From: Oikopleura dioica
Taxonomy: Eukaryota; Animalia; Chordata
Direction: 5' to 3'
NCBI GenBank assembly: GCA_907165135.1
Contig: OU015568.1
Coordinates: 5,394,001 to 5,458,000 of the forward strand
DNA length: 64,000 nucleotides
Shown: in pieces, positions 16,470 through 63,599 of the stretch
Layout: each line of letters opens with the position of its first letter
How positions within the stretch are numbered: the first letter of the stretch is position 1
Made by a program: the position numbers and the translations under genes
The notes under the pieces: model-generated
What the model was told of the DNA's origin: nothing
The model's database searches: none
The model's input: only the letters and a program-made list of their open reading frames with translations

Positions 16470-17052
16470 AAAACGATCGAAAAACAATTAGAAGAAATAA
16501 TTTTTAGCTTTTCCCTCATTTTTATTTTCATTACAAATTCAATAAATGAATCATCTGTGCATCTCTTATTGTCACATTTTGTTCATTTTCAAAAAATAAA
16601 AATCGATTCCTTCGAGATTTTCGCGCCAAATTATATCAACAAAATTTTATCCTTCTATTTTATTGATGGTGAGCTTTTCGAACTGATTTAGGCGTTCGAG
16701 TCTTTAAAACACGGGAAGAAGTGATGGCCTAATTATCGTCAATATCGAGAAGCTCTTATAATAATAGAAACTCTTGATGGTTTTACCATAAATTTGAGTC
16801 ATATAGTCAGTACAAAGTTCAGAGTCTCTGTATTCAAGATGAACATGATTGTTTATTTTCCATGCAATTACCAAATCATTTTTCGCCAGCGGAACTTTCC
16901 ATGCCAAAAAATGGTGGCACCACCATCATTCAGCGATTTTTCCAAATATGACCTGTACAGCGCGTCCTTGAAATAGACCACTTATGTAATTTTTATTTGT
17001 CTCCGTCCATAAAAGCAGCAAAAAACAAGCAAGAAAAATAAATAACCCGGTT

Positions 17053-41533: not shown

Positions 41534-41789
41534 TGACGACTAGAGATTCTTGATTAATCTCGAACGACAATTCTTCCTATGATTCCTCCAGTTACTGTCT
41601 CTCTCCTTTGTCCTACACTTCTTTCGCGTCACTTCATATTTTACTGTGCACACATAATTCAGCTTATAATCAGCACTCGTCCCTGCGTTCCATGAGTCCA
41701 AGTTCAACTCCCTTTCAGTTCACTCCATCTCTCAATAAATATCCAATCAAGCTCACCGCTCGAGTCTTGCTTACCAGTTCTTTATTATA
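41534..41789 (+). repeat. 5' LTR (256 bp)
   Basis: TGACGACTAG...TTTATTATA, identical to 54902-55157, with AATAAA near the 3' end. Confidence 0.93.
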
Positions 41790-41942: not shown

Positions 41943-43946
41943 ATGGGAGATGAAGAGGGTGAGGAATCTTTCCCCATTCTCAGAAAGGACTATTTAAAAC
42001 AAAGGTAAAACTTAAAGGGATAAATAAGCCAGGGTTAAACCTCATTCTTAAGTCAATTAATGAAGAAAATTTTGAGAATAATTTTAAGGATAAGCTTAAA
42101 AGGAAGTTTTTGAGGAACTTGAGAAAAAGGTGATACTGTAAGTTTCGGTTCATATTATTATGAGCAGGGGGTGGTTCGTTCAGCATTTATGGCCCCAGTA
42201 TCCGAGCCTTATAAGGATGAAACGGGAGAGGCTATTACAATAAAAGAGTATTATGATGAAATAACAGATATAAATATTAGTGAGATAGAAAGTATGTTCT
42301 TCAAAATAAACGCTGAAATGGTTGAAAACATGGAATTTGGAACTTCAAATGAGAAAGGACAAAAAATGGTCAAAGAAATTATCAATGATCTGTACGGATA
42401 TCCACAATTCAATATACCACTGAATAAATTCATCTATTCTCGAACAAAAAACGAGGCACCTACTCCTGTAACGGAAGCACGCACTCCTGTAAGGGAAGTG
42501 CGTTTTAATCACAATACTTTGCCTAACGAGAACAGTGAACAAATTGAAAGTAAGCCAGGCTTAGATCCAAAAGCAATATCCACTCCAGCATTTCCGAGAG
42601 GAAACATCAGATTTGAAAATCATGATAACACGCAATTTGACGGTTACGCACGTCATGACTTACCAAGACCAACATTTAATGAAACAGCATTTCAGAAAGA
42701 TATGAGAGAGGGGATCAGGAGATCACTCCAAGAAAAGGCTATCTCGGAAGAGGATAAAAGGAGAAAAGAGAGGTCTGCAGGTTCGAGTAATCATTCGGAA
42801 TGGCAGGATACAGGCAATGAGATCATGGAAAATGATCAAGTTTTGGAACAATATGCATTTTTAGAAACAAAGGACCAAGCAAAGGTAAAAGTGAGCCTTA
42901 AACATATAGGCTTTGAAGATTTAAAAATCTTACTTCTTGGTACAATGACAGTGTGTTCGCACTTAGTTTGGCAGGAATTACGGAAGAACGCTTGAGAGTT
43001 ACTCAATTAATTGCCCATCTACGGGATTCTCTTAAACACCAAGTGATAAGGAAATTAGGGCGAATTGAGGGTGTGCCTAAAACCGCGCACGTTCTTTACG
43101 CTCTAGAGGAATGTAATTCAAATACAGCAATTGATTCTAAAAAACGGTTAGAAAAATACCAGATAAGCCTCAGCAGACCAATAATCGAGCAATACCATCA
43201 GATTGAGGAAATAGTGGAAAGAGCTTGGCCTTCTTTGTCAGAAGAGGCCCTGCGAGAGCTTGCTGAGATAAAACTGGTTGAAAAGCTCCCAAAAGCATCA
43301 CTGAGGAGTCATTATTTAAGTTTAGAGGTGAAGACATTGAACAGGGGAGCTTTTAAGCATAATTCAAAAGATAATGGACGCTTCTAAGGATAGTAGAACG
43401 ATAAATATGATCAATAGGCAAGCAAAATGCTTCTCTTGCAATCGACCGGGACATAAGGCAAGCCAATGCTTCTCAAAGAGCAGAAATAATTTGCCACAAC
43501 AATTATTCAGAAACCAAAAATTTCGAGGAGGTTTCCAAAGAGGTCAGGCGCAAGGAAATTTCAGACAAACCTTTGGTCAAAATTTTAATCACAGGGGACC
43601 AAACGGATTTCGGGGACCCAGAGGATCTTTCCGAAAACCATTTGGGAATAGGTTTGATAATCAGAACAGAAATATAAGACCAGCTCCGTCAAAGAATTGG
43701 TCTAAAGATCAAGGAAAAGCAGAATTTTCTTATCAAGGGCGCTCTCAGGATGGCAAAAAGCCTTTTCGAAAATTCGACGGTCAAAATTCCCGCGAAAGAT
43801 ACCAAGGGACCTGCAGTTTTTGCAAAATTCGTGGGCATAAGCAGGAGGATTGCTACAGATTTAAGAAGCAATTGCAGGTAAATTACATCCAGGGAATGGA
43901 TAAAGCCACTAAGGACAGTGAATTTAGAGGGGAATATAAGGACTAA
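41943..43946 (+). CDS. gag: Gag with two CCHC knuckles, four 1-nt frameshifts at homopolymers
   Basis: ATG at 41943 (MGDEEG). ORF pieces rejoin with single-base fixes at ~42000, ~42128, ~42925 and ~43345. CFSCNRPGHKASQC and CSFCKIRGHKQEDC. Confidence 0.85.
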
Positions 43947-46900
43947 TGAGGTCACCTTGTGCGAAAATTTGTATAAAGCAATATTATGGTATCAATGAGT
44001 TTAGAAAAATTACAATAGAAGATGCACTCATTGATACTGGTGCATCAGCATCATTTGTACATAGGCGTTCAATAGTTGCGGATTTCATAGAAAAAGATGT
44101 TTTTTATAATGTAGGAAATATAAAGGAATCAAAAATGCTTGCAATTAGAAAATCTATCTTGTGTAATGTGGTGATTGAGAATAACCCGGAAATACCAAAC
44201 GCGGAATTATGTATACTAGAAGACCCAAACATAGCTACTAATGCCATAATAGGGATGGACCTTTTAGAGAATCGAGAGATGATTGGCAAAAACATAATCA
44301 TAAATCATGATGAAAATGGAATAAAATTTTTGAGGAATATGGAAAAAACGGAAGAGCTTATAGAACCTGAGGTGATATTTGTAAGGAAAACATTAAATAC
44401 ACGAAATAACTCTTTAAATTGTAATCAAACAACTATTTGTCTCCCCGGGGAAATAACAAAAATATCAGTCAAGAAAACACAAAATAAGAATTTAGAAAAT
44501 CACGAAATGTCCGCGGAACTCGTTGAATGCGGACTAGAATCAAGAAATTATCGTTTTAAAAAGGGATTGAGAGAAATTGAATTATTCAATCCAAGTTTAA
44601 ATGCAATTGTTATAGAAAAAGATACGACAATTATGACAGAAAATCATAAACTTGAGGACGGACCAGACATTTTGTTGAACTTTCTGGTATCTGTCGATGA
44701 AATAACTGAGCCAGAAAAACTCGTTTTGGAAAGAGAGTTTAAGAACTGGAAAAAACAAAGAGAAAAATTGATAAAAAATGTATCATTAGATGAAGAAATT
44801 GACAAAGCAGTCGATGGTGCACCAGTAGATTATGCTAAGGGATTAAAAGATGTTCTGGCCAAATATCATATTTCTTTTAGTAGATCTAACAGCGACTGTG
44901 GAATGTCGAAGAAATTTTTAGTAGATTTAAAATTGAAAAACCCTCATATGGAACCGGTTTTTGTGAAACCCTATAAGATCGATGCAACAGCAATGGAACA
45001 AGTTGATAAAAAATTGGAAGAAATGGAAAAGGCGGGAATCATTGAGCCAACCATTTCTTCTTGGAATTCCCCCCTCCTTGTAGTAAAAAAGAGGGATAAT
45101 TCATTAAGAATTGTAAATAACTTTTCGGCAAAAGGGAAATTCGGATCAGTTAACAGCAATTTGCTCCTTCCGCGTTTTCCCCTCTTACCAATTAGAGCCA
45201 TTTTGACAAAAATAAGTTCAGGCATTGCAAAGCTCAAAATGAAATACCCGAAAAGTAAAATCTGCTTCGCATCACTAGATGTGCGAAATGCATTTTACAG
45301 TATATCCATTCGTGAAAAAAGTAGAGACATAACTAGTTTTCAATTTGCCAATCATCAGTTAAGATATTGCCGTATGAGTCAAGGTCTAAGTTCTAGTCCC
45401 TCCAATTTTCAATCTTTTATAACCAAAATAATGAGTAATATTCCGGGAGACGGGGAGGATTTTTTTCCTTCTAATGTATATGGATGATTTTCTTATCATA
45501 TGTGTTGAGGAAAACCACAATGAAACAATTGCAAAGCTTCTTGGGCGCATTGAGGAAAACAACCTCATCATAGCACTTAAAAAATGTGACTTCTTTGGGA
45601 GTCATACTAAATTTTTGGGATATGTTATCAACTCACAAGGAATTAAGGTGGATGAGAAAAAGATAAAGGCATTATTAGATTTAGATTACCCTAAAACAGC
45701 GAAGGAATGCATGAAACTGATAGGGGCATTCAACTTTTACAACAGGTCGATAAAAAATGCATCGGTTTATCTTGAACCAATTGCTAAAGGAAGTGCAAAA
45801 GGAAAAGATTATGAAGTAACTGAGGATATTCGCAAAGGACTTGATGCCATAAAAAATGAGATAAAAAAATGGAATTCAGTCCAGTCATCTTTCCTACGTG
45901 GATGGATCGGATGGAAATTATATCTTTATGGCCTCAGACACATCGCTGACAAAAACTGGAAGCGTTGTAGGAAATTGTAAAATGATAGGAGAAAAGGTCA
46001 CGGATATTTCGATCGCGGCTTACTTTTCAAAAGTTCTTACTAAACAGGAGGGATTGTTGTCAAGTAGAGCCCGCGAATTAATTGGCATTCAATACGGTCT
46101 TAAAAATTTCTCAGATATTCTACCAAAATTTGTTCCAATTTTGGTTTTCTGCGACCATAAAAGTTTAGAGGGAATCAAGCATTCAGGAGAACTTAGAACT
46201 TCAGGAGCAACAAGAGTTAGGGGAGCATTTGCAGAGCTCCTTGATTACCCAAATATTAGGATAGTCTACCTTCCGGGAACAGACCCTCTTATTGAGGTTG
46301 TAGATCACTTATCACGGGGAGACTGTCGCACTGAAACATTGTCAACAGATGTGTTTCATCCAAGTAATTATGTTCACCCCAAAATGGAGATAAATCGGCT
46401 AGTTCAGACAGATATTGTTCAGGCATTTCACAAGGCCCCAGTGGTGGACAGAGAGGCTGTCAAAAGGGCCCAAAGAGCACACCCATATTTTTCAAAAATT
46501 ATCAAAAATAATGACGTAAACAGGGTTTTCACTCTTAACAAAATTAACTACATTATCTCAGACGAAATTTTATACAGACAGGCTTCTAATGGAACCGCTC
46601 TTTGTGTAATTCCAGAACCTTTAGCTTTTGATCTTGTTTCATATGTTCATATTTCATCTTTTCATGCGAGTAAGAAAAGTATGGAAATAATTATAAGGAA
46701 TGAACAAATATGGTTGGAATCGAAAACAAAAATCATTGATCGGGTCTGCAAAAACTGTTTAGCATGTTATCTTGTCAACCCAAACAGATATAGAAGTGAA
46801 AATGCGAAGGTTGTCAGAAAACCAGCCCTTAGAAAACTCGAAAAAATTTATGTGGACTTAATGGAAACAAGAAATGATAATGTGACCAATTACTTTCTCA

Positions 46901-47811
46901 CCATGCTCGATGAGTTTTCATGTTTTTTACTTTTGGAACCGATAAAATCTAAACAAGCAAAAGACGTTATACCTGTACTTATGATAATGATTACTTTCTT
47001 AGGAGCCCAGGGCTCAAGTTTAATAATTTGCGATAACGGCGGGGAATTTATATCTGAGGAAATTATAGCAACTCTTAAGTCCTTATGCATCATCCAAACT
47101 CACATAACACCTTATAATAGCCCAAGTAATCGGGTGGAGCGTGCCCATAGAGACATTCGAGATAAAATGAAATTGGCTAATAAAGACTACTTGAATATCG
47201 AACTTGTTGTGAAAATGGCTGCGAATTATTACAATCATTCGCCGAAATCAAGCTTAGGGAACCATACTCCAATGGAGTTATTTTCCAATATTGCAATGCC
47301 ATCAAATTTCGGAGATTTAGAAATAAAAGAAATAAGACAGGAACAGGAGGTTGACATTTCAGAATACTTGGAAGATTTTGAAACCTTTCAAGGGGAAATT
47401 GCTAAGTTGAAAATTGATCGATACTTACTTAAGTCAGAACAGCTTGAAATACCCATTAAAGAAGGGGATTTTGTGGTCGTCAGGGATCCTAGGAAATTGT
47501 TTGGTCATGAAGCACCAGCAAGAGGACCTTATGAAGTCATTAGGAAAAAATATAGTTCAGCCTTCGAGCTAAGAGAGGTTCTAACAAACAAGCACATTTT
47601 GAGGAATTCTCGCTACTTGATAAGATTACAGCTTGACGATAAAATGTTAGGAATTTTAAGGGCAATAAGTAAGAAAAACATCTTGGATAAGGAGGACAGC
47701 GATTTTGTTAAACTTTTATGGGGTGATAGAACGGTCGTATCATCGCCAATTAACTGCGAGGAAATCAAATATAGTTCCCAAAAAAGACGCAGATATAATC
47801 TCAGAAGATGA
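43946..47811 (+). CDS. pol: Pol polyprotein (protease, RT, RNase H, integrase), two homopolymer frameshifts
   Basis: IDTGAS, LDVRNAF, YMDD, ASDTS/ELIGI/CDHKSL, H-x4-H..CxxC, YVD/CDNGGEF/RVER and GPY motifs. Confidence 0.95.
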
Positions 47812-50609
47812 AGCCAGGTTCCATAATGGGACCAAAATGGACCCTCCTGGTATTCTGTATGTATCATAATGTAAATTGTGCGATTCAAAATAACGACCAG
47901 GCGTCACGTTCAGCTTCAAATCAAATTCTGAACATAACCAAATTACTCGAACCAAACCAACCGAAAAATCATTCACTTATTAATAATGGAATAGCCTTAG
48001 AAAATAACCCATTTTTGGCTTATCACGTATTAGAAACCTATATGTCAAGCATAGAATTGAGTCTTTTCCCCGATGTAATGGATTTTCAACTAGAAAATAA
48101 TAATCACTGTTTCCAGGCACTGGCTAGGAAAAATCTCACAGAAAAGGTGGTAAGGACATTGAACGATTACATATCCGACTATTTTGGGCTTTCAAAGATC
48201 GTGTCATTCTCAGAAAATGACAGAAAACTACTTAATAATATTATCTTACTTAGGGAAAATGAGAGAGAATGTAAAATAGAGCCCGTAATGTGGACATTTA
48301 ATTCAAAACATGGGCTAGAAAATATGTCTGGAAGAATGAAAGAATTCGCGACAGAGCTTTCCGATAGAAAAATATCCACGTTTATACAGCCTGTAGAAGG
48401 GTGTGAGCGAACTCTCAATCCTAATGCTGGATTTAGTCTAAGGTTAAAATTTTTGATATCCCAAACGAAGTTATCGTTCAATATGGGAAAACGCCATTTG
48501 GACTTGTCAAATGGTCGTTAGTCCTAAATATGGACAGAACAAAAATGGTCTGGTCCAATCAACGAGATCATCCGAACCGTTTCATTTTTCGAGATAACAT
48601 AATATCTGACTTTGTTACTTTCCCTATTCCAAAATCAATGCAAAAATGGCACCAAGTTAATGGAAAAGACACGAATTATTTCTATGTCGACCTTGTTTTT
48701 TATTTGGACAAAGAAACCTGGTTCTCTGACCCGACAAAGGAAAATGTCGCGTTCAAAAATAATGATCAAGTTTTTAACGAAGTTTGTTTAAGCCTTCGAA
48801 TACAGGAAATTTATGGGATTGTCTCAGAGGAGAATGATGATTCTGACAGAATTGTTATAAATGGAAAGCCAAGAAATCGTAGAGATCTCAGTTCTGATTT
48901 TACGGTAGGATTATCATTGGTCAACTACATTTTTGATGGGATCGACAGTTTCCGAATACACCATGAATTAAACGAGATAAAAGATAAAATAAGTGAGGAT
49001 GAGTTGCATAATTTAGAACTAGCAAAATTAGAAAAGAATAGCATCGAAGTCGTTAACGATAATACGCGTAAACTTTTGACTCTTCAGAAAGCTGAATGTT
49101 CGTCTGAGCTCGAATTACAGGAACTGAAATTTGAAGTTTTCATTAGAAAAACATTCGACCTTTTTCTGTCGCAGGTTATTGAATTGAAAGCTGAAATAGG
49201 TGCCCAAGCACCCAATTCAAAATTACAAAATTATTTGATAGCGCTTTGCCTTAAAAAGAATAAATTACAAACTGGATGCGCTCACTGGTTCCACAGGAAC
49301 AACTTCGAGTTGGAAGCGGTCGAAACGACATCAAAAACCTACGGGTCAGGAGTTTTATTAGGGGTTAAGTTTTCGGTCAAATTTTTGTTACCATACCTAA
49401 GCCAAATTGAGAAGGTATTTTCAATAGTACAGGTTCCTGTCCCCATAAAAAAGGAAGGAGAGTCATATTACTTTCTTAATTATGATGTGCCAACTTTTAT
49501 TGGAATCGCTAATTCTAACAAGAAAGCTTATCCACTAACTAATTGTCGAAAACTTGAGTTCCTCGGCACACGTTTCTGTCCTATCGACAACATTCTAATA
49601 AACCAAGAGGAAATCGACTGTGCATCAGCCCTTCTGGGGCAATCGATTCACAAATATTGTCGATCAACAGTCTTTAGAAGTAGTCATGACTGCCTCTATT
49701 CAGGAAAAACAGGGGTGAAACATTTGCTCATATCCCATTTCAATAAATTTTCGATCATTGAAGAAAGCGGTCATAAATTGCCAGGGGTCGAGCTTATGGA
49801 AACAAATGTTAAAATCCAAAATGTTACGATGGTTGAAAGGGGAAACCAGGCGAAAACTGTCGTATGTGATAAATCTAGATTCCAGATAAACGCGTTGTCA
49901 AGTGATAAAGAAAAAGAGCTGATCTTGACAGTTCCAAGATTAGAAACAGCTGAAAAGCTGAACATGGAAGAGATAGATTCCAACAACTTTTGGAGTCTCG
50001 GATTTGGGAACTTAGAGAATTTAGAATTTTTGGATGAGTCGAAAGCCTTGGATTTGATCAACTCATATCAAACAAGTTATGAGAACAAAATTGTAAAGAC
50101 AAAGAGTTTTTATCAAACCTTTTTCTGGTGGGTTTCTGACAAAAAAAGTCATTATTATAATAGCCTTAGTTGTAGGAATTATCCTAGCTCTATCAATCTT
50201 CGTGGCTTCCAAGAAATATACATGGATAAGAAAAGTGTTTAAGTTTATTTGGACAATTTTCAAAACAGCCCTTGAATTTTTATGGAAAATATTAGCGGGA
50301 ATAGGAAAGGCAATTTATAAGTTCTTCCGATGGTTAATCGTCGGGCTTTTCTGTAAAGATAAGGATACAGAAAGAGCGGGAACGCCTTCTTCATCAATCT
50401 TAACTTGGAAAAAGCCAGAGGATTCCGATGAAGAAAGTAATCTAATGGAGGGAAGCACTGCCGAAACAAGTTTTACGCAGCAAGCGAAGCCACCAATGCT
50501 CCGGCAGGCTACGAGAGAAAGAGATCTTCCTTTAATCAAGGAGGAACGTTTTACCCGAAATACGGAAAATCGTCGCTCAGTTTTTCGAACCCCAAGAATA
50601 AGGAGTTAA
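47808..50609 (+). CDS. env: Envelope glycoprotein, class I fusion-like, two homopolymer frameshifts
   Basis: Signal peptide, KPRNRR cleavage site (~48866-48883) followed by hydrophobic FTVGLSLVNYIF, heptad region, Cys-rich block, TM VIIIIALVVGIILALSIFV after a 1-nt fix at ~50145, and a long tail. Confidence 0.88.
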
Positions 50610-50624
50610 AAATTCCCATAGAGA

Positions 50625-51077
50625 ATGTCCCTGTACATCACTGATTCATTTGAATCATTGGAAACGGAATACTGTCAGCCTCACCATTCAAAAGAATTTG
50701 ATCAGCTCGTACCCACCCATCTTAGTCGACAACGTCCCATAAAACCCCCAAAACCAATTTTTGTAAGCCAACCGGTCCAAAATAGCCATGTCTTCAGTAC
50801 TCAAGCTAACAACAACGAAATAGATACCATCACCGAGGTCAAGAATAATATAATACAGAAAATTGTAAGATTGCTAGAAAAGATAAATCTTAAATCAAAC
50901 ACTCCAAGTGACAATTTGCAAAGTTTTTACGCGCTCCGAGAAATGAGTCTTACAGCTCTTCTGACGCTTTTTGAGCTGCTAAGACAGTTGAATGAGTCTA
51001 CCTTTACTTATTCACCTGTATTTCCGCTTCTTAGCCAACTATGCCCGTTTTACAGAAGGAAAAATAACCAGAATTAA
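50625..51077 (+). CDS. Accessory ORF, 150 aa, unknown function
   Basis: ATG 15 nt after the env stop, followed by an A-rich region with AATAAA. Confidence 0.55.
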   Translation: MSLYITDSFESLETEYCQPHHSKEFDQLVPTHLSRQRPIKPPKPIFVSQPVQNSHVFSTQANNNEIDTITEVKNNIIQKIVRLLEKINLKSNTPSDNLQSFYALREMSLTALLTLFELLRQLNESTFTYSPVFPLLSQLCPFYRRKNNQN

Positions 51078-51703
51078 CCTGCTAATGTTTCGCTGAAAAT
51101 GTAAAAATGTAAAATTTTTTTTTAGAAAAAGCAAAATTCAAAACAAAAATATAAAATAAAAATTTATTTGAAACAAAAATAAAAATTACAAAAATATAAA
51201 AACCAAAAAAAAAAAAATTTTTTTTTTTCTTCAAGAAAGGAATTCGAGTCGATCCTTTTAAATATATCCTGTTTTATGCTTAGTTTGTTTGCCTTGCCAA
51301 AATACCAAAACACAAAATATTTTTAGAAATATCTTTTATTTAAAAAAGAATATCAATGTAAAATTTTATTCTTCTCCACTGCGAAACCATTGAGTTATCT
51401 TCCAACTGGAATTTATAAATCATTGAAAAATTCAATATGAATATTTACCAAAATCGGAGAATGAAAGCGCAAATGAATTTTAAGAAATTTATAACTGCCC
51501 TCGCAGTTCGAATATTCATTGAATGATTGTTCTCATATGACATTCTGAAATACGGAATATCATGATTTGAACACAAAATAGAAAGATTGAGCAAAAGTAA
51601 AATTTTTGCACAGAAAAATGCTTAATCAAGCCCCAGAGCGGTTTAGATTGCGAATTATATCCCTAAAAATAAGCAAAAAGTAAAGAAAAATTGAGGAAAA
51701 ACA

Positions 51704-52988
51704 TTACTCAAGTGTTGTTAGCGTCTCCGTGACAGTAGTCAGTCGATTTCCTAAATTGTTTAAAGTTCTCACTGTTTCAGTCAGTGCTCGTTGTATTTCC
51801 AGGTCAAAGTCTTGTATTCCTTCATGAGTAATTCGATTCTTTAGGTTAGAAGAAGCCCTACAAGTATAAGAAAAACAAAATTATAAATAATCAATCTACC
51901 TAGACATTCTTTGCAATAAGTTTACAAACATCCCCAGTTTACGATCAAGTTTTCGGATCGTATCTCTTTTGACCGCTTCTGACAAATCATTATAAAAGCG
52001 CTCCTCGTCTTGGTTCATGCTAAAAAAGATAATCTGGTGCAAACCCTTGAAACAGAGATTAGTTCATTCCTTAGTTTTTCAGTAAGAAAATACGCGGTAT
52101 TGTTCCAAAAGTAAGAGGGAAGAGGATTTTTCATAATAATGTCTTCGAGAACAGAAAGAGCTACATAGACTCCGGTATGTCGTCAAAATCTAAAAATCGG
52201 TTACGATAACGAATAGGAAATTTTGTAATTTACCTGAAAGCCTGGAAAGGCTCTCACTGACGCTGCACGATGATCCAAGGATTAACGACCTCTAGTTAGA
52301 GAATAACATTAAGTCATGAATATAGAAAAAGAACGGCCTTACTTTAAACCTGCGACGGAAGGACTCCAGACTTTTGTTAATTTCAGTTGAAAATCGGTTT
52401 TCCGACATTTCATTGAGCCTCCGGTTCATGGATCCTTCCGAAACACAACCATTACCCCCCGAAATACGTCGGCAGTGCCTAAAAGAAAAATAACACCTTA
52501 TTCCACAAAGAGAAATCATACTTGCGGTAGAACTCTGCGGTAAGGAACGGATAGTTCGCCGCGGCATTTTCATACTTAGACCAATTGACATGTTTTCCTG
52601 TTCGCTTGACGATTTTCTGCAAGAATCTACGGCTCACGATATTGAGCCTGTAAGGAACCAATTGGCTGATTACATCAAGTTCATGATATGCGGGATTTAG
52701 GCACTGATAGGAGGATTCACCATCAGGGATATACTACTTTGCGGATGTAAGAATCAAAAAATAAGTGAACCCTACCCTTAAAACAATCCAGAGGTTCAAT
52801 GCTTATCCGAAGATCGAAGTTTCGACCTTTTGTTTTTTCAACTTGCCCAAATACAATGAGCTGCCGGATGCCATATGTTATTGGGCTACAGCTATCAACA
52901 ATTAGATATGAATGAACATAGTGAGCCGGGTAGCTCCGCAGGATTGAAAGCTGCTTTTCGATACTCGTGACGAATGACGGCTGCAAAG

Positions 52989-53019
<31 letters not shown>

Positions 53020-53557
53020 ATATAATAATAAAATATAGTAGTTAATTAGGAAAGTTGATTTCTACTGAATTTCTGTATCATCAAAGTGGGCGAGATTTCT
53101 TTGTCGCCCGGGGCCAAATATGACCCGTGATGACTCAGAAAATTCAGTTGAGGGAAAAAACTTTCAGTAAAAATTATAACGTTAAAATCTTACATTCTTT
53201 CTCACGGGAACTCGTTCTTGCCCATCCTTGTCAACAGGCTAGATGAGTAATATTCATTTTTGAAAACCCAAAAACTGGAGCTTACCTGTCTATCATTTTC
53301 TCCTTCAAGATTCAAAGAGTCATCGCGGGAAGTCGTCTCACTGTCCTGATTCACCCTAACCAGGTTTTAAATATTCAGAGCTTTAACGGGCGACTTACGG
53401 ATAAACACCTGTTTCATATAGCGTCTGGGTAGAAATGAGGCAAGCGTGCCCTTGAAGATCGCTAGGGGAACTTTCCCTACTCAGTAGACTATTTGAAAAT
53501 AATTAAGAATAAAAAATTTCTTGAAATGAATTACCTCGATGATGGAAAATCAGCCAT
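51704..53557 (-). CDS. Intron-containing antisense gene inside the retroelement, ~10-11 exons, unknown protein
   Basis: Exons 53535-53557, 53399-53488, 53286-53355, 53194-53238 and 53160-on join in one open frame across GT-AG introns of 46, 43, 47 and 33 nt. Last intron 51858-51899, last exon ends ..TETLTTLE*. Central junctions are uncertain. Confidence 0.7.
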
Positions 53558-54155
53558 TTTTGCGTTTTTTCTCTTTTTTTTGTGCGAAAATGAAGCTAGG
53601 AAATCAAATTGCGTTTTAGATGCAAATTTTCCAAGGCCATAAAGCCTTTGTTAGGAAAATTTAACCACGGATGTGCGTTCAACATGCAAAATGCGAGAAG
53701 AAACAGATTTAAAGCCTATAAAATGCTATGAATGAATAGGATGTTCGAAGTATTCGAGAATTTTCGAGAAGCTTCTAGAATCTCAAAAATTCTGCATCAA
53801 ATAAATGAAAAGAAAATGGATCCTAAAGGACCCAATAAAAACAGAATAAAATGATCGTTTGACGTCAAGGAAGTACAGTAATTCTTCCGGAAAAAGCGTT
53901 TCTTTCCCAAAGTAGGAAGAAACACTAAGAACCCAAAATTCAAGTCGCACAGACGGTTGAAAAACGCTGAAGATGCCAAAATAAAAGTATAAATACGGAA
54001 CCATTCTACTCCGAAAAGCATCAGTTCCACAAATCAAGAAAAATCCAAATCTCTTTTGGAAAATCGCTTCTTTTTTCAGCAAGAATGAGCCAAATAGAAA
54101 CAACTCCTGAGCATCTCAACCTAGAAAAACCGAAGAGGAGATTGACGAGGAATTA

Positions 54156-54872
54156 ATGAAAATGGACGGGGAGGAAGCTGTGCCGACTACCTCAACAACC
54201 AACGATCAAAGTTCTCAACCTGAAAATCGACAAGCGACTAACGAAATCCAGATGCAGGAGAACGAAGAGCAAGCTCCTGAACTCCAATCTTTTGAAGAAC
54301 TCACACAAAGACAATTTAAATCCCTCAGAGACGGCTTCTTGTCCAATCAACTCGACCGAAGAAGCGTGATGATTACTGCGAATATCGAGCCGGATTACGA
54401 CTATGTCTCTGATGAGACAAACGTTCAAACGGCTCGAGACTTATGCGAGCAAATCAAGAAGGCGAGGTTTTCAGCAGTTCGAAGTACTATTAACCGCCTG
54501 ATAAGCGAAAAGCGAAGTCTACCCTTTATCAACTCATTGCGGGAGCTGTTCGACAGCGACACCGTTCTCTACAACTCCCACAATATATGTGGGTTGCACG
54601 TTCCTCTCCGGGTATTTGCCCATGGATACAGGCAGACGAACTTCGTCATTCTCGTCAGCTCGCCCATACAAAGCATCATGTACCTGGGCGTACCGGCCCC
54701 CACAGACAAAGTGTCTCCAGATCTCACAGGGATGAGTCTTTATCCGAAAATCAACGGCCACAACCTAAAGATGATGCGAAAATTCCTAGTCCTGCAAGGC
54801 CTCCGTGTCTGTAAGATTCAAGGCAACTTCTTCTCTGGCCGATACTACAACCGAAACTACCGATACTACTGA
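54156..54872 (+). CDS. Accessory ORF, 238 aa, unknown function
   Basis: Clean ATG-TGA ORF ending just before the PPT and 3' LTR. Confidence 0.7.
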   Translation: MKMDGEEAVPTTSTTNDQSSQPENRQATNEIQMQENEEQAPELQSFEELTQRQFKSLRDGFLSNQLDRRSVMITANIEPDYDYVSDETNVQTARDLCEQIKKARFSAVRSTINRLISEKRSLPFINSLRELFDSDTVLYNSHNICGLHVPLRVFAHGYRQTNFVILVSSPIQSIMYLGVPAPTDKVSPDLTGMSLYPKINGHNLKMMRKFLVLQGLRVCKIQGNFFSGRYYNRNYRYY

Positions 54873-54885
54873 AGAGGAAATCTCT

Positions 54886-54901
54886 TGGAGGGGAAGAGAT
54901 G
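54886..54901 (+). promoter_or_regulatory. Polypurine tract
   Basis: GGAGGGGAAGAGA directly upstream of the 3' LTR. Confidence 0.8.
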
Positions 54902-55157
54902 TGACGACTAGAGATTCTTGATTAATCTCGAACGACAATTCTTCCTATGATTCCTCCAGTTACTGTCTCTCTCCTTTGTCCTACACTTCTTTCGCGTCAC
55001 TTCATATTTTACTGTGCACACATAATTCAGCTTATAATCAGCACTCGTCCCTGCGTTCCATGAGTCCAAGTTCAACTCCCTTTCAGTTCACTCCATCTCT
55101 CAATAAATATCCAATCAAGCTCACCGCTCGAGTCTTGCTTACCAGTTCTTTATTATA
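54902..55157 (+). repeat. 3' LTR (256 bp)
   Basis: Identical to 41534-41789. Confidence 0.93.
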
Positions 55158-56353
55158 GTGTTCGAGTGACGAGAACGAGTTCCGCTCCAGCGGACTGACG
55201 CAGCCTAATTCAGTTTTTGCGCAAAACAGAGTAGCTCAATTTTCATCCAAGAACACTTGTTTCTTCGTTTTCTTTTTCTTTTATGAACGGAGATACGAGC
55301 ATCGACATCTTTAAGTAAAAAGAAGGGGCCCCTTGTTCACCCTCACATTTTCTTTGAGTATGCCCTTGTTGAGCTTTGTGCCACGTAGCCTTTTATTTCC
55401 GGGATAAAACTATTCAGGGCTCGACAATCTGAAAAAGGGGCCCCTTGTTCATCCTCTTTCTTTCTACATGTATCCCCTTATTCATCCTTGCGCTGCGTAG
55501 CTTTACAAATGAATTCTGCTCGATAATCTGCGCCGAAAACCTGAGTCAGGGTCCCAAATAATTCTTTTGATAATAGTCGCCTAGTTTCTATGAGGACCCT
55601 GACTCAGGTTTTCTTCACAGGTTGCCGAGCCGAGTTCATTTGTAAGGCCACGTAGCCCAAGAGATGAACAAAGGGAAACATGGAGAATGAAAGAGGATAG
55701 ACAAGGGGCCAGCTTTTTCTGAAAAGAGCAAGCAGAAAGCTCTTTCTTGAAAGTTTTCTGATGAAATCGCAAACTTGAAAGTTGAACTATCGCTTATTTT
55801 ATAATTCGGCGACGATGTTATTTTGGTTTTCTGGCGATAATAAACCAAATATCTCGAATGTTCGGTTTCGAATTTCTCGTATTAGAAACGATTAGCGAAT
55901 TATATAATTCGAAAATATTTTTGGTTAAAAAGACGATAGACACAGACTAAATGCAGCAGCTTATCTGATGAAAAAATGGAAGTTACTTTTTCTAAACTTT
56001 ACAGAACCCTTAACAGAATCCCAAATCCTCTTGACTCCTTTAGCCTATCTCATATGTACTAGGCTGATGTCTTGATAAAAATCTACATGATAATTTCTTA
56101 CTCGAGCAGGGGTCTGGATTTTGGCCAAAAATGAAAAGCGAAAGCGAAGCGAAAGCGAAAATTTTTCAAAAATTAAAAGCGAAAGCGAAGCGAAGCGAAT
56201 GAAAATTTCGTGAGCGAAAGCGAAAATAGGAAAGAACAAAGTAACCTTTTTCTTTTTATCGGGCTCGGAAACCTGTGTAGAAAACCTGAGTCAGGGTCTA
56301 AAAGATCATACGCAGCTTTTCTTAGATGATATTTCAGACCCTGACTCAGGTTT
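55158..56353 (+). repeat. 1.2-kb direct repeat, copy 2, right flank
   Basis: Matches 40336-41533, as also shown by the duplicated ORFs 40759/55581, 40814/55636 and 41224/56045. Confidence 0.95.
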
Positions 56354-56895
56354 TCTACAGAAGTTTTTGAGCCCGGATTTAGTCATCCTTTTTTCCTGAA
56401 AAAAGAAAAAGGCACTCCCTTTTAAGAGGTTGTGAATTGAGCGATTGTCGCATTTTGCCTTCTCAGCTAATGTTAAAACTCCGCACCTGTTCCTGCTTGC
56501 TTTTTACCACAACGTGTAAAGCGGCTGTAAAAGTGACTGGCGCGGGAATGTCAACCCTCTTGCTCGGTTTAGAAAAGTCAACGGCCCCGACGTCCGACAA
56601 TTTTCGAATTTGCAGAAAATTTGCTAAACGAAAGAAAAACCAAGAAGACACCTGCTTATGAAAATGAGCAGAGTTGAATTCAATTACGCTTTTTTCTTTC
56701 CTTTTCGCTGGGAATATAAATATTCAAGCGAAAAATGGCAGGATTGATCTTTTCCTCGTCCTGGGCTGAGCAACCTGCGTAGAAAACCTGAGTCAGGGTC
56801 TCAAAGATCTTTAAGGAAAAGCCGCGCAGCGGCTTTTTTAATAACTAAGCCGCGTAGCGGCTTCGCAAGATCAAACTTTAAAGTAAAAATCGATG

Positions 56896-57112
56896 TCTGA
56901 CCACGGTGATAAAAACCTGAGTCAGGATTTGAAAAATCTTCAACGAAAGCCGCGCAGCGGCTTTTTAATAACTAACTCGCGTAGCGGCTTCGCAAAATTA
57001 CATTACAAACAATTTTTTTGTAATTCTGCGAAGCCGCGAAGTTATGAAAAAGCCGCTGCGCGGCTTTCGTTGAAGATTTTTCAAACCCTGACTCAGGTTT
57101 TTGTCACCGTGG
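56896..57112. repeat. Palindrome with TGAGTCAGG and AAGCCGC modules
   Basis: CCACGGTGATAAAAACCTGAGTCAGG ... CCTGACTCAGGTTTTTGTCACCGTGG. A partial direct copy of the left arm lies at 56780-56870. Confidence 0.75.
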
Positions 57113-57956
57113 CCAGGAGTCGATTTTAACTTGGAAGTTTGATTTTGATAAATTCTTTACTATAAAACGTGTCTTTTTATTTGCATTAAAAATCGAACTT
57201 CAAGAAAGTTGATAATTTATCAAAAACATGATCCAAGGTGTGGCTAGACTTATTTGATAAATCATGTTGCCAAATCGACGGGTCAAATTTCGGACTTATT
57301 AAATTTATTATTCCAGTTTAGAAATATTTGATTTTCGATTGGGAGAAAAATTAAGGGAGAGGGGGCCTATTTTATATCAATACGAAAAAAGGCAGCTAAA
57401 TGCTGTTTTCGAGCTGTCCATATCGTCAAGTTCAAGTGCCCGCACTCGAAATAACTATATTTATCGCCGAAACCACTTTCAGTTGATGAGTTCTTCGTCG
57501 CTCCAGCAAATCGCGTATCGACGTGAAAAAAGAAAAATCTTCTTTTGAAAAAATAACGTCGGGAAATCTCGGTTGCCGTTCAATTTTAGCACTGAGAGTT
57601 GTTTCTATTTTAAATGATTTTCTGCTGAAAGTCATTACTGAGGATTAGTTATCGATAAATCCGGATTAGGAGCAGGCTAAACTTGACGCACTCAAACAAC
57701 TATTAAGGCGCCCACTTTCTAGTGAAACAGGGTGAGGTTTAAATGATCTCTTCGTTGAAATAAGGGTAGACAGAGAAGACTCCATATCCGGAGTGGCGAG
57801 GAGACGGAACGTAGTGCCCCCTTACTTCTTCGAGGTTCAATGGTGGAGACATCTTGAGGACTCGTCGCTGAGACTTAAGAGAAAGTATAAGTACCAGATA
57901 TTGGGTCAAGATTGGGGTAAGGGTTGATCAACCCTTAAGTTTGAGTGCGAGCAGGA

Positions 57957-58240
57957 AAATAACATTTTGACACCCTTATTTTTCTTCGGATTCAGGGACG
58001 ATGTTTTCAAAATGCCCATTTTTGGGTGGAATTTCTTTCGTTACTAGACTGGAATTACTGCTTAAAAAAGGAGCCGCTTCGAAGCGCGGCTTTTTCAGTT
58101 TCTTCGCTTGAAGCCGCAAGCGGCTCCTTTTTTCAGCAGTAATTCTGGTCTAGTTATGGAAGAAATTCTACCCAAAAATGGCCATTTTGAAGAAATCATC
58201 TCTGATTTTGAAAAAAATAAGGGTGTCAGAATGTTATTTC
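57957..58240. repeat. ~285-bp palindrome centred on AAGCCGC/GCGGCT hairpins
   Basis: AACATTTTGACACCCTTATTTTT ... AAAAATAAGGGTGTCAGAATGTT. Confidence 0.75.
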
Positions 58241-58928
58241 CGGCTTTAAATGCGCCGAAAGATTTCAACCTTTGATTTCTAGCCACAAGTGAGAGATCCG
58301 AACTTTCTCTCGTAGTTGTTCTCTTGGTTTCCTGCAGGAAGGGGACTCTACTTGGCCGGTTCTATTGTTTTATTTCAGTAATTCAGAGAGTGTCTTGTTC
58401 AGGGTAGTGCAGGGCTATTTCTAGTGCGCGAGGCGCCTGGCCTAATGATAAGAGATGAGAGGGGACGGGCGAGAAGTGAGCTCGGGGAAAATTCCGATCC
58501 CACATCCCACCCAAGTCCGAGAGAAAGGCGAAATAAATCAGCAAGAAAACATAAACGATAACAGGTAAGAGCTTTAGCAATCAATGTATAAATAACGATT
58601 CAAAGTAAAGATTCGAGACACAGCGAAAAAGAACGTGGCGATAATTTGCACAAAAAATACAGGTAACTTTTGTTAGTAAATTCTTTTTGTTTTTCTATGT
58701 TAGATTTTATGATTTTTTTCTGTTGAATAATAGAATTTTACGATTTTTTTTTTTTTTTCAGGATTTTTACGTTGTTTCAAACACACGCATCGTTAATTTA
58801 CAAAATGAATAAACTCCCCTCCTCATCTTAAAATTGTTAGTAATTCGAGATAATTGCACTTTTTTTAGTGATTAGATGAGGAGGCTTAAATAATTACATT
58901 GGGGATTTCGAAATAATTAAGCACAAAT

Positions 58929-59422
58929 TTAATCGATAGTAATAGTACTCTGGCATTTGTTCGCGGCGTTGACGTCGTTGTTGACATCGTTGTTGACCTC
59001 GTTGTTGCACTGAGTATCATCTGACGATTCACTGTCGCTCATTTTGCTGAGTTCATTTCGAATTTCAAGTTCACTAGCGCTTCTGAAGGGACCAAGCATA
59101 GTTTCTTCAAGGGATACCAGTTGTTTTTTCAATTCGGTTAGTTCCTTTTTAAATTCTTGATATCGCTTGAAGTAGGGTCTTCCATTTTAAACCATATCAT
59201 TCCTCGTTCGGAGCAGTTCAGATATTCTAATTCGCCGGATCTCTTAGAGACAATGTTAATCCAAAATTCGCCTCCATCTGCTGTCGCGATTATCTGGTCC
59301 TTTTCGAATTTCCCATGTTCTAGTGTTTCCTTGAACCATAAATGCGAAGGGTCGAGGAGGCGATGTCTTTTCGTTAAATCGTCGCAATCGTAGCAAGCTC
59401 GAGATCTATTTCTTCGAGGCAT
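58929..59422 (-). CDS. Accessory ORF of element 2, ~165 aa with one homopolymer frameshift
   Basis: ORFs 59138-59422 and 58929-59132 join as ..NLKKELTELKKQLV.. if one base is added to the T5 run at ~59146-59150. Confidence 0.5.
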
Positions 59423-59604
59423 TTTGATTTTTCTCGTTTTCTGTTTTTCTCAGTCTGGGCTTTCAGAACTTGAAATCTGATTTTTATTTCTAGCGTGCTC
59501 TGGCGATAAAGCGTCTGCTGATACGGCGACTTCTCCTGATCCAGAAGGTTAGCAAATTCCTTCAGAGTTCAAGTGTCAGAGTACTTCAGTATCATTGCTG
59601 TCTG

Positions 59605-60099
59605 TTGATAATGGATGATTTTCGATCTGTAATGGAAAATTTCCACGAACCAGGAACTCTCCAAGAGTGGAATCGAAGACTCGGGCGAGTTGCTCGCGTT
59701 TTTGCTGAAACTGGAGGTTTTGACGATGGCGAAGAGATCGTCGGAGTGGTGTCATATCGGTTCCGGTGGAACGCAGAGGGCGCGTACTTTGGCTACTCAG
59801 AAACCTACACAATTTGTGAGACGATGACTCCACGAGACCACGGCGCATTTGAAAGACGTTTCCGGTTTCTTCCCTACGAGTTCTGCCCCGACGAAGTGTG
59901 CCGAGAGTTGTTGTGGCTTGGAGAAGCGTGTTCCCCAACACTCATAATGCCCCGCGACATTCCTCTTATTGACGATTACGATTTCTTCCGAATCCGCTCG
60001 CTGGCTTATCATCAGAATTACGTACAAGCGTCTGGTGACGAGTTGAAAGACAAATTCTGCTCCACAATTCGCCAACAAGTTCTATCTTATTTTGCTTGA
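59605..60099 (+). CDS. Antisense accessory ORF of element 2, ~160 aa, unknown
   Basis: The frame is open from 59494 to 60099, with first ATG at 59611. Confidence 0.55.
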   Translation: MIMDDFRSVMENFHEPGTLQEWNRRLGRVARVFAETGGFDDGEEIVGVVSYRFRWNAEGAYFGYSETYTICETMTPRDHGAFERRFRFLPYEFCPDEVCRELLWLGEACSPTLIMPRDIPLIDDYDFFRIRSLAYHQNYVQASGDELKDKFCSTIRQQVLSYFA

Positions 60100-60587
60100 T
60101 TATTCTTTTTGAGTGACTGACATTTTTCTTTGCTGTGAATTCAAAATATATAACACTTCTTTTTTAATGGAGGAGTTTTTATCTTCTTTCAAATTTGTTG
60201 TTGGAAAACTTGTATTCCGGCAGCCAAGGTTTGTCAGTGACGTCATAATCATTTTTTCGTAATTTTCAAATTTTGTGTCTGCGCGCGCGGTCGAGTTAAA
60301 TGTATCTTTAACGGGTTAACAATGCGCGCGGCGCAGCGGCGAGGTGTGAAGTTGGCAGCGAGTGGCGCGACGGAGTAGTGAGAGACGAAAGTGGCGTTGT
60401 AGCAGGCGCTGCGCGCGTCGGGCGCGGCGAGGTGTGAAGTTGGACAGCGACGCACTAGTTAAGGACGAAAGTTGAGTTGGGGAAGGCGCTGCGCGCGCCA
60501 GCGGAGTTGATGGTAGCGACGAGGTGTGAAAATGGGTGAGCGTGGCGTGGCTGGCAAGAGTAATGAGCGCGACGGTAGAGAAGAGGT

Positions 60588-63500
60588 TTAGAGGTTGAAC
60601 TGGCGAAAGCTTCTAGTAGAACGGCTTCGATTTCTTGTTGTTATTTGCGGTTGGAGGGGTAGAATTTCTTGGGACTGACTTTCTTGACTTCTGAAACGAT
60701 TGAAAATCTTCTTTGTCATTTGATATGAATACTTGAAGAGAAAATACAATATCGTTGCTACTGATAAAATGACGCAAACAGCCATGAGGTAAAATGATAG
60801 TGGTTTTACTTTCTTGTAGATTTTCGATAGTTCCGGATGTACTCTGTCCTCCGTTTCTTCCAGTTTCGAATACGTTTCCGGAGAAAAGTAGCTCGTTCGA
60901 TTTGCAAATTTTCCAATTTTCAAATAATCGGATTTTGATATCCATTGTTCGGCTCTAGAACGGATTCGTGAGTATGAGCTTGTTGTTTCCAGAACTATTT
61001 CTTCAGTCGACAATTTCGGAAGTGTCAGAATATTTGATCCACACATGAGCGCTTGTGAATTGGTTCGGTTGAGTAACGTGACAGTCGGTTCTTTCCCTGC
61101 AATTTCTTCATTTGTATTCAGTAGACTAGTTCTACGGAATGATGAGAGTAGAATTTGAGAAGGAGATGCTTGATAAATACATGGCGATGTTGATTGAAAG
61201 ACTTGTTTCGCGCAACTTGTCAGATTTGCGTGGTGAATAACTTGTCGGGCACATGTTTCACCGAAAGAGCTTCGCAGGACTTCGTCATATGTGCAAAAGA
61301 TTGAGCCTTCATTTTTGCAATTATCCAGAACTGTAATTTGCCCATCCAATTTCACAGACATCATTTTTGGGACGAGAGAGAACTCGTAGAAATAGTTTCC
61401 TTTTTCTTGGGCAATTGGTAGACCAATAGAGAGTGTTCGAATTGCTTCGCCCAGGTGTTCAATAGAAGGCATTTTCACTTCAACCAGAATTTTCAGTGTC
61501 ACAAGTCCATTGTTGGTTACGATTGGTTCAATTCCATGGATTTTAGCTTTCTTCGATGTAACGAAATTTTCGCAAGCTGCAAAAGATTTGATGTTTGATG
61601 ATTGACACAGTTTGATTATAGTCGCCATATACAGTGAATGCTGATTTTGAGTACTTATGTCTGACAAAAAATTCATGACAGATAACTGGTATTGGACGAA
61701 AATGTCATTGACCAGCTCTAAGAACATTCTATCAGACAGTTTCCCAAGTTCTTCGCATTGCCTTTCAGTTACTGTGTTCACTGTCTCGTAGATATGATCG
61801 AATTCGAAATCAATTTTTTGAATATCAGATTGTACGAGTTGTGTTAGATCTTTTTGCTGGAGCGATGACAACTGGACGGTTTTTCGTACATTTTCGATTT
61901 TCTCATTCTGCTTTCTGTCCATGATTTTGTTTGTAACAAAGCTTGTCGCTCCAGACAGCAGTATCGGAACGCCAACGGCAGCTAGGATTTGAGCTTGACG
62001 CCTTCGACGGCTTCTTGGCTTTCTGTGAGGTGGCACCACTTGATACTTGACGTCATATTTTGTAGTTCCATGTTCGGCGAGAAAAGTTTTGAAGGTTTCG
62101 CAATTGTTTTTACTAAGTCTGATTGAGAATAATAGAAAATATCGTTCGACACAGTCGAGGCAAAAGAAGCCGCTAGGGACTTCACAATTGACTTCTATAT
62201 AATCCTCGAGATGGGTGCGACATTGAACGACATAAGGTGGTTGCCTCGGAAGTGTCAGTGAATCTTCTAAATATTTATCCATGTAGTTTTTATTGAGCCG
62301 TATTTGTTTTGCCTTCAGTTTATACAATTCCAAAATATCAAGATAGGTGGTCTTGTGGTGTTCGAGCCAATCCTTTGTTTGGTCTGAAACATCTAGCGAT
62401 ATTCCAATTGTATGAATAGGTTTTGACAGTTCGATGATTGTTTGCAATTCAAACGCATCAGAACAGGAGTGTTCTGGCAACCGAATCTTGTGTCTTACGC
62501 TTCCATTTCGGTAAACGTTTTCTAGCAGCGAGTGTAATGTTTCGTTCTTCAGATACGGCAAATAAGTGTCATTTTTTGAGTGAAAAGTGTTTAGCCAGAG
62601 TTTGTTCGCGGTTGCAATCGCTCGACTTTCTCCTAGATCGTTGAACAGACTTGATCCAAATTGGGTGATAATGCCGAGAATATTTCCTTCAGAATCTGCT
62701 TCGTTGGTCGCTGTTGTTGTCTTTTCGGTGCTAACAGGTTCAATTGCTGATTTTGTTGTAGTTTTGGTCGTAGTGATCGGTTTTTCGTCGATTTTGCTAA
62801 CCGTTTCATCCAGCGATTCATCATAAAGCAGAAAAATTTCTTCGATTCGGAGTGATAAGCAGGATTTCGTTTCGTTTTTATGATCAGCATTGATGACTGT
62901 TGGACCGACGAACTCGACAGAGAGAGAAGCAGATTTTGTGGGCATAGCTGTAACTTTTGTAAGACCCACGTATTCCAAAATCTGCGACGTTACTGAACCT
63001 TCGTTTGATTTCCATAAACATTCGTCTAATAAATTGTCGAAAGCATTTGTTTTGAAGATAACGCTGTTGAATTCTTCGATGGACGTTATTCGAATGACAT
63101 GCAAATTTTCCAAAGGAGCGCATTGTTGGAAATGAAATTGCGAAAATTCAGTGCTCTTAAGCGAGAGTCTTTTTTCGTTTGGAAATACAAATTCAACTTC
63201 AAAATTCAGTCTACGTTTGACTTCTTCGGGCAGGATGACTTTCTGATTTGTGACTGTAATTTCGTTGGGACCAAGAGGAACTTCGATGTCTAGTTTCAAC
63301 CAATTTTCCATCAATTTTTCTACGTACTTTCTTGCCATTGTAGTAATATTTCTATTGCTTGAAGAGCAAGAAGACCATGACTTTTCAGGAATTATTGGTG
63401 CGGGAAACGTGAATGAAAGATTCGATGGAGTTTCACTTTGAACAAGGTAAACTTGTTCTCCTGGAATTTGGTATGTGATGACTCCGTTTGTCGAGGTGAC

Positions 63501-63599
63501 ATTTGAGATGATTGATGATGCGTTTGTGGTTGGTAAAAACGGGAAAAGGAATAAGCAGTGGAGCAGCGCGTTGATGGCCAGGATCATTCCGAGCCTCAT
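60588..63599 (-). CDS. env: Envelope glycoprotein, 1003 aa, intact
   Basis: Signal peptide, RKPRSRRRR cleavage site, fusion-peptide-like ILAAVGVPILLSG, heptads, Cys block homologous to env 1, TM FYLMAVCVILSVATILYFLF. Confidence 0.9.
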   Translation of the reverse strand: MRLGMILAINALLHCLFLFPFLPTTNASSIISNVTSTNGVITYQIPGEQVYLVQSETPSNLSFTFPAPIIPEKSWSSCSSSNRNITTMARKYVEKLMENWLKLDIEVPLGPNEITVTNQKVILPEEVKRRLNFEVEFVFPNEKRLSLKSTEFSQFHFQQCAPLENLHVIRITSIEEFNSVIFKTNAFDNLLDECLWKSNEGSVTSQILEYVGLTKVTAMPTKSASLSVEFVGPTVINADHKNETKSCLSLRIEEIFLLYDESLDETVSKIDEKPITTTKTTTKSAIEPVSTEKTTTATNEADSEGNILGIITQFGSSLFNDLGESRAIATANKLWLNTFHSKNDTYLPYLKNETLHSLLENVYRNGSVRHKIRLPEHSCSDAFELQTIIELSKPIHTIGISLDVSDQTKDWLEHHKTTYLDILELYKLKAKQIRLNKNYMDKYLEDSLTLPRQPPYVVQCRTHLEDYIEVNCEVPSGFFCLDCVERYFLLFSIRLSKNNCETFKTFLAEHGTTKYDVKYQVVPPHRKPRSRRRRQAQILAAVGVPILLSGATSFVTNKIMDRKQNEKIENVRKTVQLSSLQQKDLTQLVQSDIQKIDFEFDHIYETVNTVTERQCEELGKLSDRMFLELVNDIFVQYQLSVMNFLSDISTQNQHSLYMATIIKLCQSSNIKSFAACENFVTSKKAKIHGIEPIVTNNGLVTLKILVEVKMPSIEHLGEAIRTLSIGLPIAQEKGNYFYEFSLVPKMMSVKLDGQITVLDNCKNEGSIFCTYDEVLRSSFGETCARQVIHHANLTSCAKQVFQSTSPCIYQASPSQILLSSFRRTSLLNTNEEIAGKEPTVTLLNRTNSQALMCGSNILTLPKLSTEEIVLETTSSYSRIRSRAEQWISKSDYLKIGKFANRTSYFSPETYSKLEETEDRVHPELSKIYKKVKPLSFYLMAVCVILSVATILYFLFKYSYQMTKKIFNRFRSQESQSQEILPLQPQITTRNRSRSTRSFRQFNL

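Follow-up and report, generated by a model that had tools for sequence, protein, structure and literature searches.

Head-to-head accessory gene pairs between env and the 3′ LTR of two Ty3/gypsy retroelements of Oikopleura dioica, with a predicted intron-rich antisense gene

We have analyzed a stretch of 64,000 nucleotides of the Oikopleura dioica genome (GenBank assembly GCA_907165135.1, contig OU015568.1, positions 5,394,001 to 5,458,000), hereafter called the window. Within these 64 kb lie two env-bearing Ty3/gypsy retroelements, arranged tail to tail. Element 1, on the plus strand, is complete; element 2, on the minus strand, enters from beyond position 64000. An earlier sequence-only reading had proposed that each element carries an antisense gene and a sense gene, placed head to head, behind env. 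Such a pair is indeed present in both elements, between env and the 3′ long terminal repeat (LTR). The pairs are real, look coding and lie within the elements, and, as had been claimed, the standard gypsy plan does not include them. The proposed layout and places also hold, except that the ATG of the element 2 antisense open reading frame (ORF) is at 59611 and not at 59605. The two 3′ regions contain the following features.

50625 to 51077, plus strand: extra sense ORF of element 1, 150 amino acids (aa), no known domain
51100 to 51420: AT-rich stretch of element 1, with AATAAA on both strands
53557 to 51704 or 51626, minus strand: predicted spliced antisense gene of element 1, 12-13 exons, about 430 codons
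53558 to 54155: spacer of element 1, with TCTAGA at 53774, a CRE at 53860, TATA at 53988 and an initiator-like (Inr-like) TCAGT at 54021
54156 to 54872, plus strand: sense accessory ORF of element 1, 238 aa, open from 54111, intronless, no homologue
58929 to 59422, minus strand: sense accessory ORF of element 2, about 164 codons, one frame break near 59145
59423 to 59610: spacer of element 2, 188 nt
59611 to 60099, plus strand: antisense ORF of element 2, 162 aa, intronless, no homologue
60335 to 60547: three GC-rich direct repeats of period 88-92 nt, between env and the antisense ORF of element 2

The head-to-head orientation is common to both elements; given two extra genes in each, simple arithmetic puts the chance of this at about 1 in 16. 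Contrary to the earlier reading, the layouts are not the same throughout, since element 1 has the extra 150-aa ORF where element 2 has its repeats. This ORF, whose length was reached in 16 of 1000 shuffles, begins 16 nt past the env stop and is a third accessory candidate. Beyond it, sense-strand AATAAA signals stand at 51155 and 51178, through which the genomic RNA must read. Transcripts from the env side and from the antisense gene may converge and end in the AT-rich stretch. The sense gene of element 1 may in fact start upstream of its ORF, at the ATG at 54085, which is one frame off, and in that case the spacer measures 527 nt.

The longest ATG-initiated ORF in the 3′ region of element 1 (238 aa) was matched by none of 1000 shuffles, and that of element 2 (162 aa) by 7 of 1000. 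We also scored codon use against a model that had been trained with the window's other genes. The score of the element 1 sense ORF was reached by 3 of 500 shuffles and that of the element 2 antisense ORF by 17; for the pieces of the element 2 sense ORF the counts were 28 and 0 of 500. Contigs of every DNA run covering the sites differ in length from the window at 50141, 51696, 59145 and 59480, and several of the frame breaks are therefore likely to be errors of the window assembly, not decay. Near 59145 this is true of all four runs compared, and the break in the element 2 sense ORF is likely the window's own error.

The four DNA runs, out of six available, also bear on whether the pair belongs to the element. 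Two of them, X1 and X3, come from one study and are perhaps not independent of the window. A single contig of X5, from another study, covers 51236-54929 (3.7 kb) with 3 substitutions and 22 gap letters, whereas on the adjoining host flank 16 of 257 letters differ. The element copy is thus much younger than the divergence of the host sequence, and it carries the whole pair: the cassette belongs to, and travels with, element 1. An X1 contig, whose source is perhaps shared with the window, joins antisense exons 1-5, the spacer, the sense ORF and the LTR. Contigs of the element 1 cassette are present in three of the four runs, and contigs of the element 2 cassette in all four, from three studies, two of these runs being from other studies; contigs give no copy count. 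In X6, 13 of 14 bins of element 1 lacked contigs, which is no evidence of absence. In all four runs contig depth is higher over element 2 than over unique flank, depth being no measure of copy number.

The antisense gene of element 1 is not a single ORF; the frame from the ATG at 53557 closes after 8 codons unless the transcript is spliced. We predict splicing through 11-12 short introns of host type, with the following exons.

53557-53535, 53488-53399, 53355-53286 and 53238-53194, minus strand: exons 1-4
53133-53066, 52980-52777, 52733-52522 and 52478-52343, minus strand: exons 5-8
52291-52234, 52189-52070, 52019-51900 and 51857-51704, minus strand: exons 9-12
51662-51626, minus strand: optional exon 13

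The predicted introns are AT-rich and 42-85 nt long, with 9 of 11 falling between 42 and 51 nt. Their GC content is 0.27, compared with 0.43 in the exons, a contrast that is not independent because the introns were partly chosen by eye. The frame-blind parse is independent. A spliced parse of the minus strand from 51700 to 53560 scored 591, a value reached by none of 150 dinucleotide shuffles and none of 150 local shuffles. The plus strand and four non-coding regions were unremarkable (22-128 of 150 shuffles), and two host genes gave scores similar to that of the antisense gene. Open frames are joined in phase at 7 of 9 GT-AG junctions (p 0.008-0.025). Oikopleura introns have a length peak at 47 bp and commonly have GA-AG ends, as described in PMC4122922, and the introns predicted here match both properties. 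Intron candidates of 39-51 nt occur in host and element genes of the window.

The sense strand is different. The 717-nt sense ORF of element 1 has no introns, where 6.1 would be expected at the density of the antisense gene (P 0.002), and the sense-strand ORFs are open without introns. Introns absent from sense genes and predicted in an antisense gene are as expected if sense introns, but not antisense ones, are spliced from the genomic RNA before reverse transcription. The intron richness of the antisense gene, missed in the sequence-only reading, is the most unusual feature of the locus.

We then come to the spacers. That of element 1 contains TATA and Inr motifs directed towards the sense gene (a combination found in 17 of 2000 shuffles), together with a CRE palindrome, which 3 of 2000 contained. 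Also present is TCTAGA, the palindromic testis motif of Oikopleura; it is weak, occurring in 188 of 2000. A tract resembling a splice acceptor ends at 54079, 6 nt ahead of the ATG at 54085. In Oikopleura, both TATA and TCTAGA have been documented as core promoters (PMC6389100). Precedents for internal promoters are the env promoter (Penv) described for Tor3b/4b (PMC4402516) and the one belonging to maize Grande gene23, which is itself an antisense accessory gene (PMC7264820). It is plausible from these motifs that the spacer acts as an internal bidirectional promoter. The CRE palindrome (TGACGTCA) has three copies in the window (53860, 60238 and 62048), all of them inside the two elements.

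On balance we favor the view that both elements carry a divergent, probably genuine accessory pair behind env, and that the spacer serves as internal promoter for both genes. The genes lie far down the genomic RNA, presumably out of reach of scanning ribosomes, and would need transcripts of their own. With a promoter in the spacer, the sense mRNA would run to the poly(A) signal of the 3′ LTR and the antisense mRNA would end in the AT-rich stretch behind env. As the antisense strand would never be packaged, antisense introns would not be spliced out of the genomic RNA and would persist through every round of reverse transcription, in contrast to the sense-strand cargo, which is intronless. On this view the elements would work as complex retroelements do, with a module of accessory genes.

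Several observations weigh against this reading. No transcript, transcription start site or splice junction was observed. Four RNA runs with the same species label, out of six sets of raw reads, covered short repeats but otherwise neither element nor the host flank, which gives no information about expression. Canonical splice sites do not bring the frames of the antisense gene into phase at junctions 5/6 and 9/10, and two further junctions need GG or GA donors. One gene model contains an in-frame stop at 52185-52183. The single antisense exons have no codon bias (68-356 of 500 shuffles), and the frame-blind intron count is marginal taken alone (6 against 2.6, p 0.045). No TATA was found in spacer 1 towards the antisense gene, none of six promoter and acceptor motifs sought in spacer 2 was found, and the promoter motifs were picked after looking at the sequence. 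Nor was a homologue, domain or fold supporting a function found for any accessory protein. At junction 9/10 there may be either one gene with an in-frame stop in this copy, or two genes, of which the first stops at 52161 and the second is trans-spliced; such a pair may form a mini-operon. One of the listed X5 substitutions falls within the stop codon at 52185-52183.

The genes could be real without the spacer being a promoter, which we regard as unlikely. The antisense gene would then be transcribed from the 3′ LTR, in the manner of HBZ of human T-lymphotropic virus (HTLV), with the sense ORF inside an intron or outron of its RNA, and the sense gene would be cut from RNA of the LTR or env promoter by cis-splicing or spliced-leader trans-splicing. 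The acceptor-like tract ahead of ATG 54085 would suit this, as would two short GT-AG intron candidates and T-rich acceptors on the antisense strand of the element 2 3′ untranslated region. Moreover 39% of Oikopleura genes are reported to be trans-spliced (PMC6389100), and antisense promoters in the 3′ LTR giving spliced RNAs are described as the rule in deltaretroviruses (PMC10186651). However, the splice signals are weak, being reached by 226 and 198 of 2000 shuffles, spacer 1 has its TATA and Inr at a plausible distance, and only 27 nt separate the sense ORF of element 1 from the LTR.

The pairs had further been proposed to occupy a slot for exchangeable cargo. This was not borne out: there are two elements only, their layouts differ, and the first 18 nt of the antisense genes are identical at 15 positions. 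The proteins themselves have no evident similarity, as had been stated, but of the 1716 ATG 18-mers of the window, those at the two antisense starts match each other best. In the next 37 residues, a length chosen after looking, 7 are identical in register (89 of 20,000 shuffles). The shared start gives a hint of one ancestral module. It is quite possible that both cassettes descend from a single head-to-head ancestor and have diverged beyond recognition, with no exchangeable slot; the common junction of pol and env (see below) shows one lineage, and with env 22% and integrase 30% identical, faster-evolving accessory genes could have become unalignable. Against this, the antisense N-termini, when aligned locally, score no better than chance (1602 of 3000 shuffles), the antisense genes differ in size (about 430 versus 162 codons) and in introns (11-12 versus none), and a control in the wrong frame gave 0 of 3000, so that short anchored matches are fragile. 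Exchange and deep divergence are indistinguishable given two elements and no retrievable relatives; no related loci were found in viral contigs or metagenomes. We think it improbable that each element instead captured a head-to-head pair of host genes together with their promoter, now carried as a passenger without benefit. The host-type introns and the A-rich leaders in the cassette are in keeping with capture, as are the compactness and close gene packing of the Oikopleura genome (PMC4122922) and the uptake of ORFs downstream of env by LTR elements (PMC6431247). Yet no parent gene was found in the window by tblastn or in protein sets of 5.8 billion and 1.84 billion, and 1.6-4.3 kb of unneeded sequence would have been kept open-framed in recently moved copies. 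Least probable of all is that the ORFs are chance frames or the remains of a nested transposon. The failure to find a homologue anywhere and the low-confidence structural models would fit chance frames, but the ORF-length and spliced-parse shuffle tests speak against them. A nested DNA transposon was rejected, neither 3′ region having terminal inverted repeats, and no transposase domain was found.

Searches with the accessory proteins were negative throughout. No homologue was found for the sense ORF of element 1 (224 candidates), for antisense exon 6 (29 candidates) or for residues 450-1003 of the element 2 env (7996 candidates). An identity search of the sequence collection gave matches for none of 10 ORFs, and the two large protein sets contained no homologue of the accessory ORFs searched. 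Two HMMER matches of the element 2 antisense ORF to bacterial-type cupredoxin and Fn3 repeat proteins were rejected as artefacts scored over four repeats. Pfam and PHROGs gave no match above cut-off for the accessory proteins, and a PDB sequence search with five queries gave nothing at E<0.7. Two single-sequence AlphaFold models had confidence scores (pLDDT) of 31.7 and 39.3; Foldseek with the latter returned nothing at E<=0.001. The Pfam bZIP domain was not matched in the accessory ORFs and antisense exons scanned, nor was the TRP28/transposase 28 domain in the ORFs or in the antisense exons scanned, 8 of 12. No clear transmembrane (TM) helix was found in the single-exon accessory proteins. 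Antisense exon 12 has a weak Pfam match to a spectrin-like coiled coil (E 0.007). The sense protein of element 2 has an N-terminal CxxC/His cluster and, C-terminally, acidic repeats and a coiled coil predicted from reading the sequence and from weak Pfam matches. The PWWP/Tudor-like look of its N-terminus, noted by eye, had no Pfam support. Tentatively, we favor the view that the accessory proteins act inside the cell, regulating expression of the element or countering host silencing like retroviral accessory proteins. The suggestion comes from the analogy with HBZ, Grande gene23 and foamy virus Tas and Bet.

The remaining parts of the two elements are as follows.

41534 to 41789, plus strand: 5′ LTR of element 1, without the first 2 nt of the 3′ LTR; TGG tract resembling a primer-binding site (PBS) at 41792
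42189 to 47811, plus strand: gag and pol of element 1, in pieces; gag CCHC knuckle; protease, reverse transcriptase (RT), RNase H and integrase
47808 to 50609, plus strand: env of element 1, furin-type site and C-terminal TM helix; breaks near 48500 and 50141
54887 to 54899, plus strand: polypurine tract (PPT) of element 1
54900 to 55157, plus strand: 3′ LTR of element 1, AATAAA at 55102
58504 to 58290, minus strand: predicted 3′ LTR of element 2, TG...CA ends; AATAAA at 58374
58512 to 58505, minus strand: PPT of element 2
60588 to 63599, minus strand: env of element 2, 1003 aa, intact; furin sites at residues 529-534, TM at about 936-955

Both are env-bearing Ty3/gypsy retroelements. Element 1 has the hallmarks of the group, with two LTRs, PBS and PPT and the domain order protease-RT-RNase H-integrase, and its LTRs are identical over 256 of 256 nt. 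Both of them terminate in TATA, not CA, and the 5′ LTR lacks its first two bases. A target-site duplication of 4-5 bp was not found flanking the element; there is instead a direct duplication of 1.2 kb (40326-41534 and 55145-56354, 99.5% identical), which could be due to an aberrant one-ended integration or to an assembly artefact. For element 2, only the PPT and 3′ LTR are inside the window, the 5′ LTR lying outside, and the pol sequence is limited to the integrase C-terminus. The alignment of an X3 flank contig ends at 58319, 30 nt inside the predicted LTR boundary.

The two elements are distant relatives, judging from their sequences. The env proteins are 22% identical over 299 aa (E 1e-12), and the C-terminal ends of the integrases 30%. 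In both, the env start and pol stop overlap by 4 nt after a common YNLR motif (window positions 47808 and 63599), which suggests stop-restart translation or an internal env promoter. The host genes around the elements are compact, and include an M1 aminopeptidase, a DHHC and an SDR gene. This compactness and the short intron candidates are in keeping with the larvacean Oikopleura as host. Another host gene is in tandem duplicate (2140-16477) and encodes a cysteine-rich domain without a Pfam match. A very abundant foldback or miniature inverted-repeat transposable element (MITE)-like repeat family, with a shared 19-nt core and at least 12 direct copies, extends over 23161-56938.

Assignment of both elements to Tor is likely. 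Each has, as third ORF, an env with a furin site and C-terminal TM, the mark of Tor elements, and they resemble the Tor elements of PMC4402516 in Ty3/gypsy domain order, identical LTRs and the precedent of an internal promoter. In the text of that paper no ORF is described behind env, ahead of the 3′ LTR; its figures or supplement could differ. The N-[L/V]-G env motif of Tor3b/4b had no match in the env pieces of element 1 or in the env of element 2, and a Tor4b-type gap between pol and env was not found, both elements having the 4-nt overlap in its place. TORs are described as the main LTR class in PMC8008620, and in PMC13524379, as far as its text goes, Tor figures only as outgroup.

LTR retrotransposons of plants and fungi are known to have antisense additional ORFs in the interval from pol to the 3′ LTR (PMC7264820, PMC11963269, PMC8365987), termed aORF-3R, and both elements here carry such an ORF. 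They resemble maize Grande gene23, rice RIRE2, Retand TRP28 and Botrytis brtn in having an antisense gene of unknown origin in this place (PMC7264820, PMC11963269). They differ in that the gene follows a true env, is head to head with a sense gene, has 11-12 predicted introns in element 1 and has no TRP28. The GC-rich repeats of element 2 are reminiscent of the arrays of tandem repeats that plant Retand elements have in their 3′ region.

Foamy virus tas and bet are accessory genes between env and the 3′ LTR, both in sense orientation, with an internal promoter inside env. The pairs described here share the position behind env but are divergent. HBZ has one intron. The deltaretroviral genes HBZ and APH are similar to the antisense gene of element 1 in being spliced antisense accessory genes between env and the 3′ LTR (PMC10186651), but HBZ is driven by the 3′ LTR and has a bZIP domain, which was not found here. 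Bdelloid rotifer LTR elements likewise have variable cargo (ORF3) in the 3′ part of animal gypsy-like elements (PMC5408684). This is, however, a single sense ORF in place of env, encoding recognizable enzymes. ORFs downstream of env are mentioned in the review PMC6431247. In the literature we found neither a head-to-head pair behind env nor an antisense gene with a dozen introns described for an LTR element; figures or supplements could hold such a description.

A lineage of tunicate retrovirus-like elements may possess an undescribed post-env module, comprising an internal bidirectional promoter and two swappable slots, of which the antisense slot would shelter whole host-style genes with a dozen introns from the splicing filter of retrotransposition. 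These would be the first complex, accessory-gene-bearing retroelements of this design from an invertebrate chordate, a proposal that we consider doubtful at present. The strand asymmetry of the introns would be a clean natural example of an RNA-replicating element carrying an intron-rich gene. Repeat masking causes such genes to drop out of annotations. The passage from simple to complex retroviruses is marked by accessory genes. Where these come from, and what the antisense ORFs of plant retrotransposons do, would both become testable with a young, polymorphic element that brings its own complete module of two genes into a tractable animal: through the starts of the transcripts, the splicing of the antisense gene, and a role of the proteins in regulating the element or in weakening silencing by PIWI-interacting RNA (piRNA).

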